Part shown: positions 10,001-23,902 of the stretch, one piece after another | Layout: each line of letters begins with the position of its first letter | Position numbering within the stretch: position 1 is the stretch's first letter | Source of the DNA: an uncultured bacterium | GTDB lineage: Bacteria; Babelota; Babeliae; Babelales; Babelaceae | Direction of reading: 5' to 3' | Assembly (NCBI GenBank): GCA_963722385.1 | Contig: CAVRKK010000002.1 | Location: 960,001-1,024,000 of the forward strand | Length of the DNA: 64,000 bases | Made by a program: the position numbers and the translations under genes | Notes under the pieces: model-generated | What the model was told of the DNA's origin: nothing | Seen by the model: the letters and a program-made list of their open reading frames with translations, nothing else | The model's database searches: none

Positions 10001-11540
<1,540 letters not shown>

Positions 11541-11879: not shown

Positions 11880-12555
11880 TGCTTCGGTTTTGCTTTACAT
11901 AAAAAGCCTTTTTGTTATAATTATTATTAGTGAAAATTTTCTTGTGTATATATTAAAAATTATGTGTTCTTTGAAATATCTATAGTGTAATAGTCTAAAG
12001 CGACAATTTACTGAGATCTCGAAATTTGATAAGTTTAGTGGTTAATTGAAAAGGGCTTCCGGTGGATGCCTTGGCACCAAGAGACGATGAAGGAGGCGGA
12101 AGACTGCCATAAGCTTCGGGGAGCTGTCAAACAAGCTGTGATCCGAAGATGTCCGAATAGGGAAACCGATTACGATCAAATCGTAGTACTCGTATCTGAA
12201 TATATAGGGTACGAGGGTGAACGGCGTGAACTGAAACATCTAAGTAGCGCTAGGAAAAGAAAACAAAGTGATTCCCTGTGTAGTGGTGAGCGAAAGGGGA
12301 AGAGCCTAAACTCCTGTTATGTGATAACCTGTGTGTGTTGTAGCAGGGGGGTAGTGGGATGATAATGTCTGAAGAACACAGTCTTCAGCATACGGATACT
12401 TACCTTAGTCGAATGTTTTGAAAAGGACAGTCAAAGAAGGTGAAAGCCCTGTAGGCGAAAAGCTAAGTATCATATGAGTTTTTATTCCCAAGTACCGCAG
12501 AGCACGTGAAATTCTGCGGGAATCTGCCCGGACCATCGGGTAAGGCTAAATACTC

Positions 12556-12607
<52 letters not shown>

Positions 12608-13200
12608 GGGAGGGGAGTGAAATAGAATCTGAAACCGGTCGTCTACAATCGGTGGAAGCGCTGTATAAGAACGCGCAACCACGTACCTTTTGCATAATGA
12701 GCCAACGAGTTATCTTATGTTGCAAGGTTAAGCTTTGAAAGAGTGGAGCCGCAGCGAAAGCGAGTCCGAATAGGGCGATTAGTAGCATGAGATAGACCCG
12801 AAACCTAGCGAGCTACCCATGTCCAGGGTGAAATCTCAGTTAGATGAGATGGAGGCCCGAACCGGTGTAGGTTGAAGACTGCTCGGATGAGGTGTGGGTA
12901 GGAGTGAAAGGCTAATCAAGCTGGGAGATAGCTGGTTCTTCCCGAAATATATTGAGGTATAGCCTCGTCGGATGAATTGTGGAGGTAAAGCACAGTTGAA
13001 GTTTTGGGGGCGCAAGCTTACCGGATTTTTACTAACTCTGAATGCCGCAATTTTAGAAGACGGGAGTCGGACTGTGGGGGATAAGCTTCATAGTCGAGAG
13101 GGAAACAGCCCAGACCATCAGCTAAGGTCCCTAAATGCTCGTTAAGTGTGAAAAGAGGTGGCAGTACATAGACAGCCAGGAGGTGGGCTTAGAAGCAGCC

Positions 13201-13237
<37 letters not shown>

Positions 13238-14034
13238 TTTGCTGCGCTGAAATACAAACGGGGCTAAACGAGCTACCGAAGCTATGGCTTGTAGTGTACT
13301 GCGGTATGCTACAGGGGTAGGGAAGCGTTCTCTAGCAGATACAAGCTCGACTGGAAAGACGAGTAATGGGCTAGAGAAGTGAATATGTTGGTATAAGTAA
13401 CGATAAATAGGTGAAATTCCTATTCGCCGTAAGTCTAAGGTTTCCGTGAGATAGGATCATCCACTCAGGGTTAGTCGATACCTAAGCCGAGGCCAATTGG
13501 AGTAGGCGATGGACAACAGGTTAATATTCCTGTACCACCTTTAAGCGTTTGAGCGAAGAGGGGACGCAGCAGGGTAGGCTGACTTGGCTTATGGATTGCC
13601 AAGTTAAGCACCTAGGGAGATTTGGTAGGTAAATCCGCCAGATCATAGATCCTAAAGTGTGATGAGTATGCTAAATCCTCGTGGTTTTGTGTATTCAGCT
13701 GATCCCATACTGCCTAGAAAAGCCTCTAGTGAGCTTGAAGGTGATCGTACCGCAAACCGACACAGGTAGACGGGCTGAGAATGCTCAGGCGTTGAGATAA
13801 CCACCACTAAGGAACTCGGCAAATTGGCCTCGTAACTTCGGGAGAAGAGGTGCCTGCGATGTGATTTGTGTAATCAGCAAAGAAGCATTGTCAGGTTTCA
13901 ACAAAGAGGCCCAACCGACTGTTTATCAAAAACACAGGGCTCTGCAAACTCGTAAGAGGAAGTATAGAGTCTGACGCCTGCCCAGTGCCGGAAGGTTAAT
14001 AGGAGATGTCAGCTTAAAAGCGAAGCATTGAATT

Positions 14035-14070
<36 letters not shown>

Positions 14071-14334
14071 AACTATTGCTACCAGTAGAGGCCGTTGTAA
14101 AATTTGGCTATATGCTGGAAACTCTCATGTATCCTACACTACTTGCCTATGGGTAAGTGACAATGTGCTAGGTGGAGACAATCAGCAGGAAAGGCCTTGG
14201 CTTAAAAAGCTAAGGAATCCTCAGAGACTATACGCCAAACTCAATTGATAAATTGAGAAGATAGAGTCCGATCTCTATGGCGACATAGAGCGCAAGTAAT
14301 TGCGGCTTTCTCATGTGAGAAAGAAACATAAATA
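14071..14334 (+). mobile_element. Group I intron at 23S position L1923, 264 nt, no ORF, terminal nucleotide A
   Basis: Splits AACGGT|CCTAAG; IGS GCCGTT gives U-G pair at the 5' splice site; core P TATGCTGGAAAC, Q AATCAGCAGG, R CAGAGACTATA, S AAGATAGAGTCC. Confidence 0.93.
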
Positions 14335-14362
14335 CCTAAGGTAGCGAAGTCCCTTGTCGGGT

Positions 14363-15076
14363 AAGAGAATCTTGCCCCTTTATCTCGTGAGAGATATTGA
14401 AACACCAGCTCATATCGGGGGAACCCTCCTGAATCTTTATTCAAAGGGCAATCCCGAGGGAAGTCTACCGAAGTATTCGGTATGACCCCGTAACGACTGA
14501 TCCGAAAGGAGAGGCACACGTGTGCGTGTGCAACACGCTGGTTACTTGCCTTAGAAAGAGGGCCTATGGAGATATATAAAGTGCTTAATCCGTGGTTTAT
14601 AACAGGGTTGACTGATGGAGAAGGTTGTTTTTCGGTTTCGTTTACGCTGCGTAAGCGTGTGAAGCTTGGTATAGAAACTCGTCCTTCTTTTTCGATATCG
14701 CTTAATTGTAGAGATCTTAGTTTGATTAAAGCAGTGCATAATTATTTTCAATGTGGCAGTGTACGTTATTGTCAATCTGATAGAACATATAAGTTTGAAA
14801 CTCGTTCTATCTCTGATTTGGTTAAATGTATCATACCTCATTTTGAAAGCTATCCTCTGCAATCAAGTAAAGCTAATGATTTTGAGCAATTTAAGAAGAT
14901 ATGTACCTATGTACATGCCAACCTTCATTTAAGTAGATCGTATCTACAAGAAATCATAGAAATTGCATGTCTTATGAATCCTTCTGGAAAACGGAAGTAT
15001 AGTAAGGATGATCTTCTAAGGGTACTTTGCAAGTAAAAGGTATAGTCTACTTCTTATAGAAATATGAGGTAAAGTG
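14363..15076 (+). mobile_element. Group I intron at 23S position L1951, 714 nt, carries a homing endonuclease gene
   Basis: Splits GTCGGGT|AAGTTCCGAC; IGS CTTGCCC; R GTAACGACTG, S AAGGTATAGTCT; terminal G at 15076. Confidence 0.95.
14566..15036 (+). CDS. Single-motif LAGLIDADG homing endonuclease, intron-encoded
   Basis: WFITGLTDGEGCF motif, IIPHFESYPLQSSK, MN near C-terminus; SD-like GAGGG. Confidence 0.95.
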   Translation: MEIYKVLNPWFITGLTDGEGCFSVSFTLRKRVKLGIETRPSFSISLNCRDLSLIKAVHNYFQCGSVRYCQSDRTYKFETRSISDLVKCIIPHFESYPLQSSKANDFEQFKKICTYVHANLHLSRSYLQEIIEIACLMNPSGKRKYSKDDLLRVLCK

Positions 15077-15545
15077 AAGTTCCGACCTGCATGAATGGCG
15101 TAACGAGTTGGGCGCTGTCTTGGTGGTGGACTCAGTGAATTTGTAGTACCGGTGAAAATGCCGGTTACCCGCGACTGGACGGAAAGACCCCGTGCACCTT
15201 TACTGCAACTTGACATTGATTTTCGGATAGCTTTGTGTAGGATAGGCGGGAGACTGTGAAGCCAAGGCGCCAGCTTTGGTGGAGTCAATCTTGAAATACT
15301 GCCCTTATCTGTTTGAAAATCTAACTTCGACCCGTAATCCGGGCGGAAGACAATGTCTGGTGGGCAGTTTGACTGGGGTGGTCGCCTCCTAAAATGTAAC
15401 GGAGGCGTTCAAAGGTTCCCTCAAAGCGAATAGAAATCGCTGGGTGAGTGTAAACGCAGAAGGGAGCTTAACTGCGAGGCAAACAAGCCGAGCAGATGCG
15501 AAAGCAGGAGTTAGTGATCCAGTGGTTCCGTATGGAAGGGCCATT

Positions 15546-15582
<37 letters not shown>

Positions 15583-15859
15583 TATCTCCTCTGAGAGTCC
15601 ACATCGACGAGGAGGATTGGCACCTCGATGTCGGATCATCGCATCCTGGGGCCGGAGAAGGTCCCAAGGGTCTGGCTGTTCGCCAGTTAAAGCGGTACGT
15701 GATCTGGGTTCAGAACGTCGTAAGACAGTTCGGTCCTTATCCGTCGTGGGCGTAGGGTATTTGAGGAAGGCTGTTCCTAGTACGAGAGGACCGGAATGGG
15801 TGAGCCTCTAGTGTTCCAGTTGTTTACCAAAAGCAGGCTGGGTAGCTAAGCTCATAAGA

Positions 15860-15890
<31 letters not shown>

Positions 15891-16112
15891 TTGTTCCAAG
15901 ATTAGATACCCCTGTTCTCGAGCAATCGAGAAACTAAGGTCCGTTGAAGACTACAACGTTGATAGGCTGGATGTGTAAGCATAGCAATGTGTTTAGCTAA
16001 CCAGTACTAATAGACCGAACGTTTTAATCACTGATATTAATTTATCAGAGAAAAGTTTAAAGCTTTCGAGTATTACACTATAGATATGAACACGTAATGA
16101 TTTTGAAAGATT

Positions 16113-17248: not shown

Positions 17249-19663
17249 TTAGGGCCCTTTCGCTTTGAGGTTCCAAAGAAAGAGGAACCATTCAAGACGG
17301 GATAGTTGAAGAACGGGAGGGTGCGGTTCTAACCAGGATTGTAGCGGATTGGAAGCACCTAATTCTTTCAAATTACTTATTAAGGTCACTATGCTAGAAA
17401 AGGTCACTGGGCTAGAAGTTGTATCCCCAAGATTTTCCCAGTAATTAAGCCCAGTAAGTCCACCATTGCTCTTGTTGTTAATATAAAAAGCTATTAATCC
17501 TAGCACTGACCCTACCGTCACTGAAGGTATGATCCATTTTAAGGAAGCCAAAAGCTGATCACGGACGGTCTTGTTGTTAGGTGAATTCTGCAAGGCTTTA
17601 TTAAGTTGACGTAAGACTGCTTGCTGATTTAATAAATTATCCCGAGTATCTGTATCGTTATTTCTCGCGGGGGCATTAATGATAGAAGTATTTGCTGCGA
17701 GATCACTAAGCCTATTTGGTTCGTGTTGCTCTTGTATGGTTCCCTGCTGCAGAGCTTGCTCATGAATACCGGGTATTTGAGTGTTTGGTGTTACTGATAG
17801 ATCAAGCTGGTGAACCGGAGGCTGCTTGTCTTCAGTCTCTTCGTTATTAACGATAGGTGTATCAGAGCTTGAGGCTTCAGCGGTATCATGCTCCTGAAAA
17901 TTGCCAATAGATTCGGTAAGCCATGTAATAATATAATCATGACCATTGCGGTGAGCTACGGTGGTAGCCGTTTGACCATCAGTAGTTTGGGCACTAATAT
18001 CTGCTCCATGGGCGACAAGCCACCGAATGGCACTCAATTGTCCTGCGTGAGCAGCCCAATGTGTCGGCTGTCGGCTATCATTATCTGGGGAATCAATATG
18101 AGCACCGAGCTCGACAAGCAGCTGTAGTATAAGCAGATTGCCTCCTGCTGCAGCATAATGTATGGGCTCAATTCCTCGGTTTGTTCGAGCATTAATTGAG
18201 GCTCCCCGTTGAATGAGCAATTGTACGATGAAGAGATTTCCAGCTCGCGATGCCAAGAGGAGAGGCTCAATGTCACCGTGAGCGCGGGCACGGATGTTTG
18301 CGCCCCATGCTACAAGCAGCTCCACCAGCTTGAGGCTCCCCCCGCGAGCAGCCCAGTGGATAGCCTGTTGGCCATATTCATCAGATGCGTGAATATCTGC
18401 GCCGTTCTCGAGTAACCATTGTGCAATTTCTAAAAAGCCATAATGCGCCGCTATATGTAATGGCTGTGCCCCTTCAGCACCGCGTGCATGTATGGAAGCC
18501 CCATGTTCGGCGAGCCATTGAATAGTTTCTTGGTGCCCACCATGGGTAGCGCAATGGATCGCCTCGTTGCCAAAAGTATCCGACAAATTGATAGGAATGC
18601 CGTTTCCAATCAACCATTTTAAAATATCCATCCGGCCATTTTTTGCAGCCCATAAAGAGTTTCTTCGGTGATTATCCCGAACAGCGGTACCATCTTCTTG
18701 GGCAATATCTCTTTCTCGTTGAGCATTGCCGAGCGTACTGTTCTCTTGGCTTTTCTCAGCATCGCTCATTTGTGCTTGCTCTTCGATAGATTTTGGAGCG
18801 GCTTGTTTATTTCCATCGCGCGCGTCGAGATGAGCACCCTTTTGGATAAGCCATCTGACAATATGCGCATGCTTCCTAAGGGCAGCAACACGAATGGGTT
18901 GATTATGAGCTCCATCGCGTGCATTGATATCTGCACCGTGCCCAACAAGCCATATAAGCCCACCAAGCAGTCCATTATGACAAACATGATGAATCGACTG
19001 GTTGTCGTGAGTGTCACGATGATTAATATCTGCGCCTTGATTATAGAGTATCTGTGCTTGAGCCAAATCGCTGGCGAGCAGGGTATTGAGGAATTTTTGG
19101 TCAAGCTTTTCTTGAGTTGGTGAACGTGGTGCCTGTTGCTGATTACTGTCTGATAGGTTTAAAGGTTCTCCAGGAGGAGCAACCTGCTCAACGGTTAAAA
19201 AATCTTGGCCAGATAAAATGAGGAATTCAAAATCTTCGGCTAAACCATCTAATGCGACAGTATTCACAAAATTATCTTGGGCGACCGCTCCTGCAGCGGT
19301 CAAAGCTTGAATGATTGCTTGCGACCCACCTCTAGTTGCTAGATCTAGAGGCAGATGCCCAATGCCATCTGCTGTTGGTGCATTTACATCAGCACCAGCT
19401 ACTACAAGAACGTTGACAACCGCAAGATCACCGCGAGTTACGGCATAATGAATGGGCTGCCAACCGCGATCATCTCTGCTTGATAAATCAAGGTTCCCCA
19501 TCAATTTTCGATAATCAAGGTATGTTTTCAAAACGCCAGCGTCGCTGCTTTTTGTATGTTGAAATAACTTATAGCCTTGAGGTTTTGGTGGCTCCATACA
19601 ATAAGCAGGATTTACGGTAAGTAAGGTAGTTGCTAGAATAAGAATTTGAAGAATCTTTAACAT
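17249..19663 (-). CDS. Exported ankyrin-repeat protein with low-complexity tail and a TM segment
   Basis: Many G-x-x-P-[IL]-H-x-A ... GADIN repeats; signal peptide AYC-MEPP. Confidence 0.93.
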   Translation of the reverse strand: MLKILQILILATTLLTVNPAYCMEPPKPQGYKLFQHTKSSDAGVLKTYLDYRKLMGNLDLSSRDDRGWQPIHYAVTRGDLAVVNVLVVAGADVNAPTADGIGHLPLDLATRGGSQAIIQALTAAGAVAQDNFVNTVALDGLAEDFEFLILSGQDFLTVEQVAPPGEPLNLSDSNQQQAPRSPTQEKLDQKFLNTLLASDLAQAQILYNQGADINHRDTHDNQSIHHVCHNGLLGGLIWLVGHGADINARDGAHNQPIRVAALRKHAHIVRWLIQKGAHLDARDGNKQAAPKSIEEQAQMSDAEKSQENSTLGNAQRERDIAQEDGTAVRDNHRRNSLWAAKNGRMDILKWLIGNGIPINLSDTFGNEAIHCATHGGHQETIQWLAEHGASIHARGAEGAQPLHIAAHYGFLEIAQWLLENGADIHASDEYGQQAIHWAARGGSLKLVELLVAWGANIRARAHGDIEPLLLASRAGNLFIVQLLIQRGASINARTNRGIEPIHYAAAGGNLLILQLLVELGAHIDSPDNDSRQPTHWAAHAGQLSAIRWLVAHGADISAQTTDGQTATTVAHRNGHDYIITWLTESIGNFQEHDTAEASSSDTPIVNNEETEDKQPPVHQLDLSVTPNTQIPGIHEQALQQGTIQEQHEPNRLSDLAANTSIINAPARNNDTDTRDNLLNQQAVLRQLNKALQNSPNNKTVRDQLLASLKWIIPSVTVGSVLGLIAFYINNKSNGGLTGLNYWENLGDTTSSPVTFSSIVTLISNLKELGASNPLQSWLEPHPPVLQLSRLEWFLFLWNLKAKGP

Positions 19664-20545: not shown

Positions 20546-21794
20546 CAGGGCCGGCTCACTTAAAAAATTAAAAAACTAAGATATAATGGTTCTCAAAAAA
20601 AACCGGGAGAACCAAGATGGAAGACAGAAATATTAGTTTTTTGGATTATATAGGTGAACTAGAAGACCCAAGAATTGAAAGAGGAAAACTGCATTCAATG
20701 GCAGATATTCTTTTTTTAACTCTGGTAGGGGTTATAAGTGGGTGCGAGGGTTGGAAAGATATCGAATACTACGGAAAAGCTCGATTAGACGTACTTAAAA
20801 AGTATCTACCATTTGAAAATGGGGTACCAAGCGATGATACGTTAAGGAGATTTTTTAGAGCACTTGATCCTAATGAGTTTTCTAAAATATTTGTAAAATG
20901 GGTAAGCGATTTAGTAGCATCAGTAAGGGATAACAGAGACACTGATGATGCAAGAACAGTAGCCATAGATGGGAAAGTGACAAAAAGAAGCTTTGATCAG
21001 GGTGAAACAGAAGATAAAGAGCCTCTTTATCTAGTCAATGCATTTGCGACAGATGTTAGAATGGTCCTTTGTCAAAAAAAGGTAGAAGGAAAATCGAATG
21101 AAATAACGGCTATCCCGCAGCTCTTGGACTTAATTGATATCTGCGGTGCGATAGTGACGATTGATGCAATAGGGACCCAGAAAAAAATTGCTCAAAAGAT
21201 TATTGACAAAAAAGGGGATTATTTGCTTAATGTAAAGGGCAATCAAGGTGATCTTCTTGAAGAAATAAAAACTTTCTTTGAAATAGAAAGCGAATCAAAA
21301 TATATCAATATTAAGCATGATACATTTTCAGAAACAGAAAAAGGGCATGGTCGAATTGAGATTAGGACTTGTACAACAACCGATCAAATAGGCTGGATTT
21401 CTAAAAAGAATGATTGGGTCTCACTAAAGAGCATTGCCTGTATACAATCAGAGCGATTGATTGGTAAGAATAAGACTATAGAAAAACGTTACTACATAAC
21501 AAGTATTCCTGCATCAGCAGAAAGAATATTGCGCGCCGCAAGAAGTCACTGGTTAATAGAGAATTCGATGCATTGGGTACTCGATGTTTGCTTTAATGAT
21601 GATCAATCGAGAATTCGAAAAGGTAATGCTCCTCAAAATGTAGCGACCATCAAAAGTTTGGCGCTTAACTTGCTCAAACGAGCCCAGCCATTGGTTGATA
21701 AGTACATCAGTATCAAATGTCTTCGAAAGCTGTCTTGCTGGCAACCTAGCACTTTGGAATTAATTGTCAATCAAATTTAGATGAGCCGGCCCTG
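20546..21794 (+). mobile_element. ISAs1-family insertion sequence, 1249 bp
   Basis: Terminal IR CAGGGCCGGCTCA; 10-bp target duplication ATCAGATAAA at 20536-20545 and 21795-21804. Confidence 0.96.
20617..21780 (+). CDS. ISAs1-family DDE transposase
   Basis: DPR, PSDDT, AIDGK, KSNEITAIP, TIDA, KGNQ, HGRIE, HWLIENSMHWVLDV. Confidence 0.97.
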   Translation: MEDRNISFLDYIGELEDPRIERGKLHSMADILFLTLVGVISGCEGWKDIEYYGKARLDVLKKYLPFENGVPSDDTLRRFFRALDPNEFSKIFVKWVSDLVASVRDNRDTDDARTVAIDGKVTKRSFDQGETEDKEPLYLVNAFATDVRMVLCQKKVEGKSNEITAIPQLLDLIDICGAIVTIDAIGTQKKIAQKIIDKKGDYLLNVKGNQGDLLEEIKTFFEIESESKYINIKHDTFSETEKGHGRIEIRTCTTTDQIGWISKKNDWVSLKSIACIQSERLIGKNKTIEKRYYITSIPASAERILRAARSHWLIENSMHWVLDVCFNDDQSRIRKGNAPQNVATIKSLALNLLKRAQPLVDKYISIKCLRKLSCWQPSTLELIVNQI

Positions 21795-23902
21795 ATCAGA
21801 TAAATTACTTTCTTTAGGTTCATCAGTAATTAAGTTATCATGAGTATTTACATTATTTGCCGCTAATATAACATTAATTGAAGTAGTCTCTGCTTGTTCT
21901 ATGTTTGATTCTTCAAGTTCATCGCCCTCTTTTGGGAGGGCTTCTTTATGAACACTGCGTATTTCAGGCGTGGATGCTCTAGGTAGATCCTGATGGTGAA
22001 TCAGCGATTCTTCCTGCTCGCTTCTGCTTTCTATATCTGCTTGTTCTTCATTAATGACTGGCGTATCAGAACTTGAAGCTGCAGCTCTGTTGTACTCCTG
22101 GAAATTGCCAATAGATTCGGTAAGCCATGTAATAATATAATCATGACCATTGCGGTGAGCTATGCTAGCAGCTGTTTGACCATCAGTAGTTTGTGCGTTA
22201 ATATTTGCTCCATGATCGACAAGCCACCGAATGGCACTTAATTGCTCTGTGTGAGCAGCCCAATGTATTGGCTGTTGGCCATCATTATCTTGAGAATCAA
22301 TATGAGCACCCAGATCGACAAGCAGCTGTAATATAAGCGGATTGCCTCCTTCTGCAGCAAGATGTATGGGCTCAATTCCTCGATTTGTCCGAGCATTAAT
22401 TGAGGCTCCCCGTTCAATGAGCAATTGTACTATGAAGAGATTTCCAGAACGCGATGCCAAGTGGAGAAGCTCAATATCACCATGAGCCCGAGCACGTATC
22501 TTTGCGCCCCATGCCACAAGCAGCTCCACCATCTCGAGGCTCCCTCCGCGAGCAGTCCAGTGGATAACCTGTTGGCCATATTCATCAGGGGCGTGAATAT
22601 CTGCGCCATTCTCAAGTAACCATTTTGCAATTTCTAAAAAGCCATAATGCGCTGCTATATGTAATGGCTGTGCCCCTTCAGCATCGCGTGAATGTATGGA
22701 AGCCCCATGTTCGATGAGCCATTGAATAGTTTCTTGGTGCCCACCATGGGTAGCGCAATGGATCGCCTCGTTGCCAAGAGTATCCGACAAATCGATGGGT
22801 ATGCCATTTTCAATCAACCGTTGTAAAATATCCATCCTACCATGTTTTGCGGCCCATAAAGAGTTTCTTCGGTGATTATCCCGAACCGCGATACCACTTT
22901 CTTGGGCAAAATCTCTTTCTCGTTGAGCATTGCCGAGCGTACTATTCTCTTGGTTTTTCTCGGTATTGCTCATTTGTGCTTGCGCTGCGATAGACTTTAG
23001 AGTGGCTTGTTTATTTTCATCGCGCGCGTCGAGATGAGCACCCTTTTGGATAAGCCATCTGACAATATGAGCATGCTTCCTAAGTGCAGCAACACGAATG
23101 GGTTGATTATGAGCTCCATCGCGTGCATTGATATCTGCACTGTGCTCAACAAGCCATATAAGCGCACCAAGCAGTCCATTATGACAAACATGATGAATCG
23201 GCTGGTTGTTGTGACGTCACGATGATTAATATCTGCGCCTTGGTTACGAAGCATCTGTGCTTGAGCCAAATCATTGACGAGCAACGCATTGAGGAATTTT
23301 TGGTCTAGCTCTTCTTGAGTTGGTGAACTTGATGCCTGCTGCTGATTACTGTCCGATGGGCTTACTAGTTCTCCTCGAGGAGCCTGATCAAGGTGCTCAA
23401 CAGTTAAAAAATCTGGGCCAGATAAAACGAGGAATTCAAAATCTTCAGCTAAACCATCTAATGCGATGGTATTCACAACATTACCTCTTGTATGAGCTTC
23501 TAAAGCAATCTGGGGATGGGCGACCGCTCCTGCAGAGGTCAAAGCTTGAATGATCTCTTGCGACCCTGCTTGTATTGCTAGATCTAAAGGCAGATGCCCA
23601 TTGGCATCTGCTATTGGTGCATTTACGTTAGCACCGGCGGCTATAAGAACATTGATAACCGCAGGATCGCCACGAGTTACAGCATGATGAATGGGCTGCC
23701 AACCTTGATTATCTTTGATAGCTAAATTAAGTTGCCTGATCAATTGTCGGTAATCGAGAAAGTTCTTCAAGGCGGTAACATGGCCACATTTGATGTGTTT
23801 GAACAGCTTATGGCCTTTAGGTTTTGGTGGCTCCATACAATAAGCAGGTGCTATGGTAAGTAAGGTAGTTGCTAGAATAATAATTTGAAGGTTCTTTAAC
23901 AT
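21795..23902 (-). pseudogene. Ankyrin-repeat gene, tandem paralog of 17249..19663, frameshifted near 23215 and IS-interrupted
   Basis: Colinear with the paralog; CATCGTGACG-TCACAAC lacks 1 nt versus CATCGTGACACTCACGAC; split into ORFs 22997..23902 and 21777..22973. Confidence 0.88.

Follow-up and report, generated by a model that had tools for sequence, protein, structure and literature searches.

The window, a 64,000-nucleotide stretch of an uncultured member of the Babelaceae (contig CAVRKK010000002.1), contains a complete rrn operon consisting of the 16S rRNA gene (10001-11540), tRNA-Ile, tRNA-Ala, 23S and 5S genes. The genome (G000) measures 1.6 Mb in two contigs and has this operon as its single rrn locus. 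Among the best 120 matches of its MurA, the named relatives were Ca. Dependentiae, Babeliales and Babeliaceae at 64-65% identity, and three ATP/ADP translocase loci were found in the genome. Babelota are described as strictly intracellular within protists (PMC12172432, in part), and the host is an intracellular energy parasite. Elsewhere in the window, a DDE transposase (PF13808, PF01609) at 20617-21780 is flanked on either side by one of a pair of similar ankyrin-repeat genes (17249-19663 and 21777-22973, minus strand). The features of the 23S rRNA gene considered here are as follows.

12040..16031, plus strand, host 23S rRNA gene, in the only rrn operon of G000
14065..14070, plus strand, 5' exon strand of P1, AACGGU (E. 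coli 1918-1923), read from the sequence
14071..14334, plus strand, group I intron at 23S L1923, 264 nt, without ORF, ending in omega-A
14076..14090, plus strand, predicted P10 guide pairing with 3' exon 14335-14347, duplex -13.1 kcal/mol
14091..14096, plus strand, internal guide sequence (IGS) GCCGUU of P1, read from the sequence
14224..14230, plus strand, P7 5' strand, with G14226 of the guanosine-binding site
14264..14269, plus strand, P7 3' strand, with C14268 of the guanosine-binding site (canonical)
14271..14272, plus strand, 5' side of P9.0 (AU), pairing A14271-U14333 and U14272-A14332 and setting A14334 in the omega position
14273-14290, 14291-14304 and 14306-14323, plus strand, hairpins P9, P9.1 and P9.2, the last closed by G14323
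14334..14334, plus strand, omega-A, the final intron base
14335..14362, plus strand, 28-nt exon (E. coli 1924-1951) separating two introns
14363..15076, plus strand, second group I intron, L1951, 714 nt, with a normal omega-G
14566..15036, plus strand, intact single-motif LAGLIDADG ORF of 156 aa within the L1951 intron (PF00961, E 3.6e-27)

The limits of the first intron were set by comparison with 16 intronless relatives, in which GTAACTATAACGGT and CCTAAGG are contiguous with a 0-nt gap, which gives the insert a length of exactly 264 nt. AACGGT, up to 14070, closes the 5' exon, and CCTAAGG, from 14335, opens the 3' exon. The junction cannot slide: the insert opens with A and the 3' exon with C, and A is also the final base of the insert, against T in the 5' exon. 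On E. coli numbering the insertion follows 23S U1923 (in an E. coli locus whose 23S starts at 387, the end of the 5' exon corresponds to position 2309), which is the site of the mobile I-CeuI-type introns, and the I-CeuI target, located at LSU 1923 (PMC3315327, in part), is disrupted. The insert scored 74.2 bits against Rfam RF00028 (gathering score 50), with the conserved P3-P9 core, and P1 forms six pairs between AACGGU and GCCGUU, including the U14070-G14091 pair at the 5' splice site. Its largest ORF is 14 aa, so the LAGLIDADG homing endonuclease of a mobile I-CeuI-type intron is absent. The first-pass annotation had placed a group I intron ending in A at L1923, with this P1, this 3' exon start, an interrupted I-CeuI target and no endonuclease, and had taken it for an apparently separate omega-A ribozyme in another intracellular bacterium; these points are supported, the host by the MurA relatives and the ATP/ADP translocase loci. 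In the exon that follows, 14346-14352 reads GAAGTCCCTT, compared with GAAATTCCTT in E. coli-type 23S (around 1937-1941), a difference common to the host family. The same L1951 intron occurs in a genome of the same genus (G001), which has an L1917 intron instead of the L1923 intron.

Base 14334 is an A rather than the canonical omega-G, and the closest upstream G is 14323. The guanosine-binding site is unchanged, with the expected G-C pair after the bulged A in P7 formed by G14226 and C14268, which we take to be the equivalents of Tetrahymena G264 and C311; with A in the omega column, the intron is an omega-A group I intron of the Cbu.L1917 and ND5-717 kind. At the last P7 pair, a G14264-A14230 mismatch is unique among 62 L1923 introns, and the L1917 introns of G049 and G050 share the G on that strand. 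Two predicted pairings, P9.0 and P10, would define the 3' splice site, and the former is supported by covariation. Both P9.0 pairs were in register at 74 of 93 distinct L1923 3' ends (77 ending in G, 16 in A), including all 16 A ends, compared with only 2, 9 and 3 of the 93 in registers shifted by -2, -1 and +1, and the partners covary as T:A, C:G, A:T and G:C. This pairing register places A14334 in the omega column. For P10, a duplex as strong as that of the window intron arose in 6 of 2000 shuffled P1 loops, and a free-energy fold recovered the same pairing between the P1 loop and the 3' exon.

Alternative 3' ends ending in G were evaluated and rejected. At G14323, G14319 and G14317, P10 is lost (-0.7, -0.1 and -0.1 kcal/mol versus -13.1 kcal/mol) and 11-17 surplus bases would stay in helix 69; the first-pass annotation had given 11 extra nucleotides for G14323. 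The downstream candidates G14340 and G14341 would remove exon bases. Overall, the omega-A observation at 14334 is confirmed as real and correctly placed.

The same annotation had asked for a look at raw reads at 14334 and at other rrn copies. The single operon offers no second copy for comparison. A Logan contig from run X1 spans 14271-15012 (742 nt) with 0 differences at a depth of 5.3 and thus carries A14334; as run X1 may be the sample from which the genome came, the base rests on one assembly and one possibly non-independent contig. Among the pieces listed for the other three runs, none spans base 14334 without differences. Exon-exon joints (14070/14335) in RNA run X4 were rejected as splicing evidence, because identical joints also occur in DNA runs; these joints most likely come from intronless genes of other bacteria. 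A search of 261 genomes of the phylum gave matches in 14, and all 7 other L1923 introns end in G, which makes A14334 private to this lineage. Conceivably, the population carries omega-G, and the A at 14334 in this assembly is an error of the consensus or a newly arisen private mutation: G to A is a common transition, G stands at all 7 of these relatives as well as at 11 true L1917 ends, and the base is confirmed by a single run that may be the source sample. We consider this unlikely, since the independently assembled contig carries the A with 0 differences over 742 nt and omega-A is fixed in other L1923 lineages represented by many records.

Those lineages emerged from two scans. A metagenome scan in which only A ends were requested, and which has no G denominator, returned 23 loci, 20 of them L1923 group I introns with 15 distinct ends, one identical to that of L066. 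A scan of GTDB, admitting A or G, found among the matches listed an A at 1 of the 73 loci whose intron end was recognised (L066, from a Margulisiibacteriota genome) and three further G-ending loci without the motif. No further A-ending L1923 intron was present among the loci listed for 146 genomes of the L066 phylum. The sole match in a viral collection (L206) was not an rRNA intron. The hosts of the A-ending L1923 introns fall into at least 7 groups, whose 23S flanks are just 65-77% identical in best local alignments. Since A is also the last base of related introns at this site in several unrelated bacteria, omega-A in the window likely represents a variant that is tolerated, as opposed to an error of sequencing. 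The near-uniqueness of omega-A that the first-pass annotation had implied did not survive: the state has been published for the hexacoral ND5-717 intron, and at L1923 alone it occurs in these divergent host groups, at least 7 in number. Among 17 full-length A-ending introns, a LAGLIDADG ORF was intact in 11 (176-185 aa), broken in 1 and absent from 5. The LAGLIDADG ORFs of L1923 introns (L066, L163-L184) begin in P5 and run through core elements, an arrangement known as core creep.

To place the A ends on a tree, we used the cores of 62 L1923 introns (17 A, 45 G). Loci lacking room for the 5' end were excluded, and six rows were dropped, either as not being introns (L166, L168, L179) or because the P7 motif was unrecognised (L044, L102, L142, all G). 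On the best tree the omega base changes 6 times between A and G, counted irrespective of direction, and at least 3 changes are forced by well-supported branches. A single omega-A clade with one origin at L1923 was rejected (AU p 7e-14). All members of a diverged clade, 7 introns in number, end in A, and the sister of this clade ends in G. At other sites, the ends seen were G in 20/20 L1951 introns and 11/11 true L1917 introns; three A ends and one T end listed at L1917 proved to be motif false positives. In one further case the intron core of L088, from a MAG labelled Spirochaetaceae, was identical to that of L060 from an Acidimicrobiaceae MAG, which is likely due to mis-binning.

We then considered what might compensate for the loss of omega-G. 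A compensatory switch to A-U at the guanosine-binding site was ruled out, as its G and C were kept in 62/62 introns, 17 of them A-ending. A P10 of -9 kcal/mol or stronger was predicted in 15/17 A-ending versus 9/45 G-ending introns, and GG stood directly before the IGS in 16/17 versus 7/45; in both comparisons the A-ending and the G-ending introns were drawn from different collections, and for P10 the counts include kin that are not independent. The window intron has no GG before its IGS and carries a bulged A there instead. The uncorrected counts suggest that P10 may compensate for omega-A, but the association was lost once kinship was taken into account, with 3 independent pairs left on starred branches (sign test p 0.5-1). 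P10 is equally strong in the G-ending relatives of the window intron in its phylum (-9.6 to -14.8 kcal/mol), from which we infer that a long P10 was a permissive background more than a specific repair.

Comparison within the phylum indicated that the start and the core of the window intron have different affinities. Its first 27 nt are identical to phylum L1923 introns at 17-21 of 27 positions, compared with 5 of 27 for the L1917 intron of G001, while the core (14098-14323) is 91% identical over 188 columns to that same-genus L1917 intron (L002), with 171 of 193 positions matching compared with 149 of 193 for the best L1923 intron. Hairpins P9.1 and P9.2 are present in six aligned phylum L1917 introns and missing from the seven other L1923 introns of the phylum. 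In a maximum-likelihood tree of the phylum only, the window core grouped with L1917 cores (99/97), although AU tests (p 0.21 and 0.22) did not reject an L1923 origin. The phylum L1917 introns (G001, G015, G049, G050, G171, G184) share P9.1/P9.2 with the window intron and differ from it in P1 and IGS, insertion site and their G end. On this comparison, the window intron is probably a chimera that joins an L1923-type P1 to an L1917-type core. L1917 and L1923 introns occur in tandem in relatives such as G015 and G049, which makes gene conversion between neighbouring introns plausible. Such tandems, with a 6-nt exon (AACGGT) between the introns, were seen in L004 (G015), L028 (G049), L027 (G187), L173, L176 and L184. 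Two of these tandems, L176 and L184, combine a G-ending L1917 intron with an A-ending L1923 intron, and L004 carries a duplicate GCCGTT.

Joining these lines, we tentatively propose, at somewhat less than even odds, that omega-G has been lost repeatedly and independently in mobile, endonuclease-bearing L1923 introns across bacterial phyla since an extended P10 makes it dispensable, and that in the window intron, as a natural chimera, an L1923 guide directs an L1917 core to a site 6 nt away from its own.

For the intron itself, we favor GTP-initiated two-step splicing, and give a probability of about 70% to a model in which ligation would be exact after A14334, with the 3' site fixed by P9.0 and the long P10 and with a probably slower reaction. 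In the first step, free GTP would attack at U14070. In the second, P9.0 and P10 would bring the A14334/C14335 bond to the active site while omega-A is perhaps only loosely seated in the G pocket, and exon ligation should be accurate and, judging from other omega-A introns, probably slower than with G. As the rrn operon is single, an intact helix 69 could be obtained only by exact removal of the intron.

A different outcome would be that the intron is poorly cut or left unligated, and that 23S rRNA persists in the cell in an unspliced or nicked form. Against this, the interrupted helix 69, which forms intersubunit bridge B2a, belongs to the only operon, and the conservation of P9.0 and P10 in A-ending introns points to selection for exon ligation. 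In favor of such an outcome, there is reportedly a precedent in Simkania, for which the title of a report reads 'An unspliced group I intron in 23S rRNA'. Omega-G is moreover required for efficient step 2 (PMC3984707, in part), and ND5-717 is mostly unspliced (PMC6545197, in part). On balance, we regard persistence of an uncut or nicked 23S rRNA as quite unlikely.

It could also be supposed, following the first-pass annotation's suggestion of a possible limit on ribosome maturation, that omega-A acts as an adaptive brake on this process in an intracellular bacterium. The host is an energy parasite of this kind, and Coxiella introns affect the growth of E. coli (PMC4990558, in part). Against an adaptive brake, omega-A at L1923 recurs in at least 7 unrelated host groups, the A-ending introns often carry an intact endonuclease, and G is retained in the 7 phylum relatives; the hosts of the other A-ending L1923 introns gave no link to an intracellular lifestyle. 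A brake function is very unlikely in our judgement.

Finally, omega-A splicing might need a protein helper, either an RNA helicase or a LAGLIDADG maturase such as that of the L1951 intron, or the A might be edited to inosine before step 2. Hicks et al. 2011 reportedly assign a role to a helicase, as their title indicates. To our knowledge there is no evidence for editing of bacterial rRNA introns, and 5 of the 17 A-ending introns lack an ORF. Although dependence on proteins in vivo is common among group I introns (PMC3984707, in part), we hold both a protein helper and inosine editing to be highly improbable, and splicing guided by P9.0 and P10 remains the preferred reading.

Omega-G serves as a rule for annotating the ends of group I introns and for designing ribozymes for RNA circularisation and trans-splicing. 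Repeated A/G switches at one rRNA site, in single-copy essential genes and alongside intact homing endonucleases, suggest that the rule holds less strictly in introns with a strong P9.0 and P10. Natural sister pairs are available to gauge the cost of omega-A, namely the window intron against G012 or G001, the L164 clade against L067, and L171 against L121. If repeated loss of omega-G and the chimera are both true, these would provide matched A/G sisters for studying 3' splice-site choice by a ribozyme that lacks a terminal G.

The omega-A exception itself is rare and already documented, and the L1923 intron extends a known phenomenon; what is added is the recurrence of omega-A at L1923 in mobile introns of unrelated bacteria, together with a probable L1917/L1923 chimera. 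No report of omega-A at L1923 was found in a word-based search of the main texts of freely available papers. Among the closest known systems is the Coxiella burnetii 23S intron Cbu.L1917, which Raghavan et al. 2007 (J Bacteriol 189:6572) are said to have described as being without the canonical omega-G, and which reportedly spliced less efficiently in a 2009 paper. Like the window intron, Cbu.L1917 lacks omega-G, lies in 23S helix 69 of an intracellular host and is followed by a short exon (34 nt in Coxiella, 28 nt in the window) and an L1951 intron with a LAGLIDADG gene. It differs in its site, 6 nt upstream (1917 versus 1923), its IGS and the phylum of its host, the comparison being one of described features. 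The hexacoral mitochondrial ND5-717 intron has a natural omega-A, stated for Stichodactyla (PMC8146996, in part), and in corallimorpharians ND5-717 lacks omega-G and is ligated exactly in vivo with >70% of the precursor unspliced (PMC6545197, in part). Unlike the window intron, ND5-717 interrupts a protein gene in animal mitochondria, has genes inserted in P8 and is not mobile. The insertion site of the window intron is shared with the Chlamydomonas chloroplast I-CeuI intron (PMC3315327, in part) and with archaeal LSU/1923 introns listed as IB4 (PMC6125680, in part). The window copy differs from these in the lack of an ORF and in its A end; many of its bacterial L1923 relatives carry single-motif LAGLIDADG ORFs.
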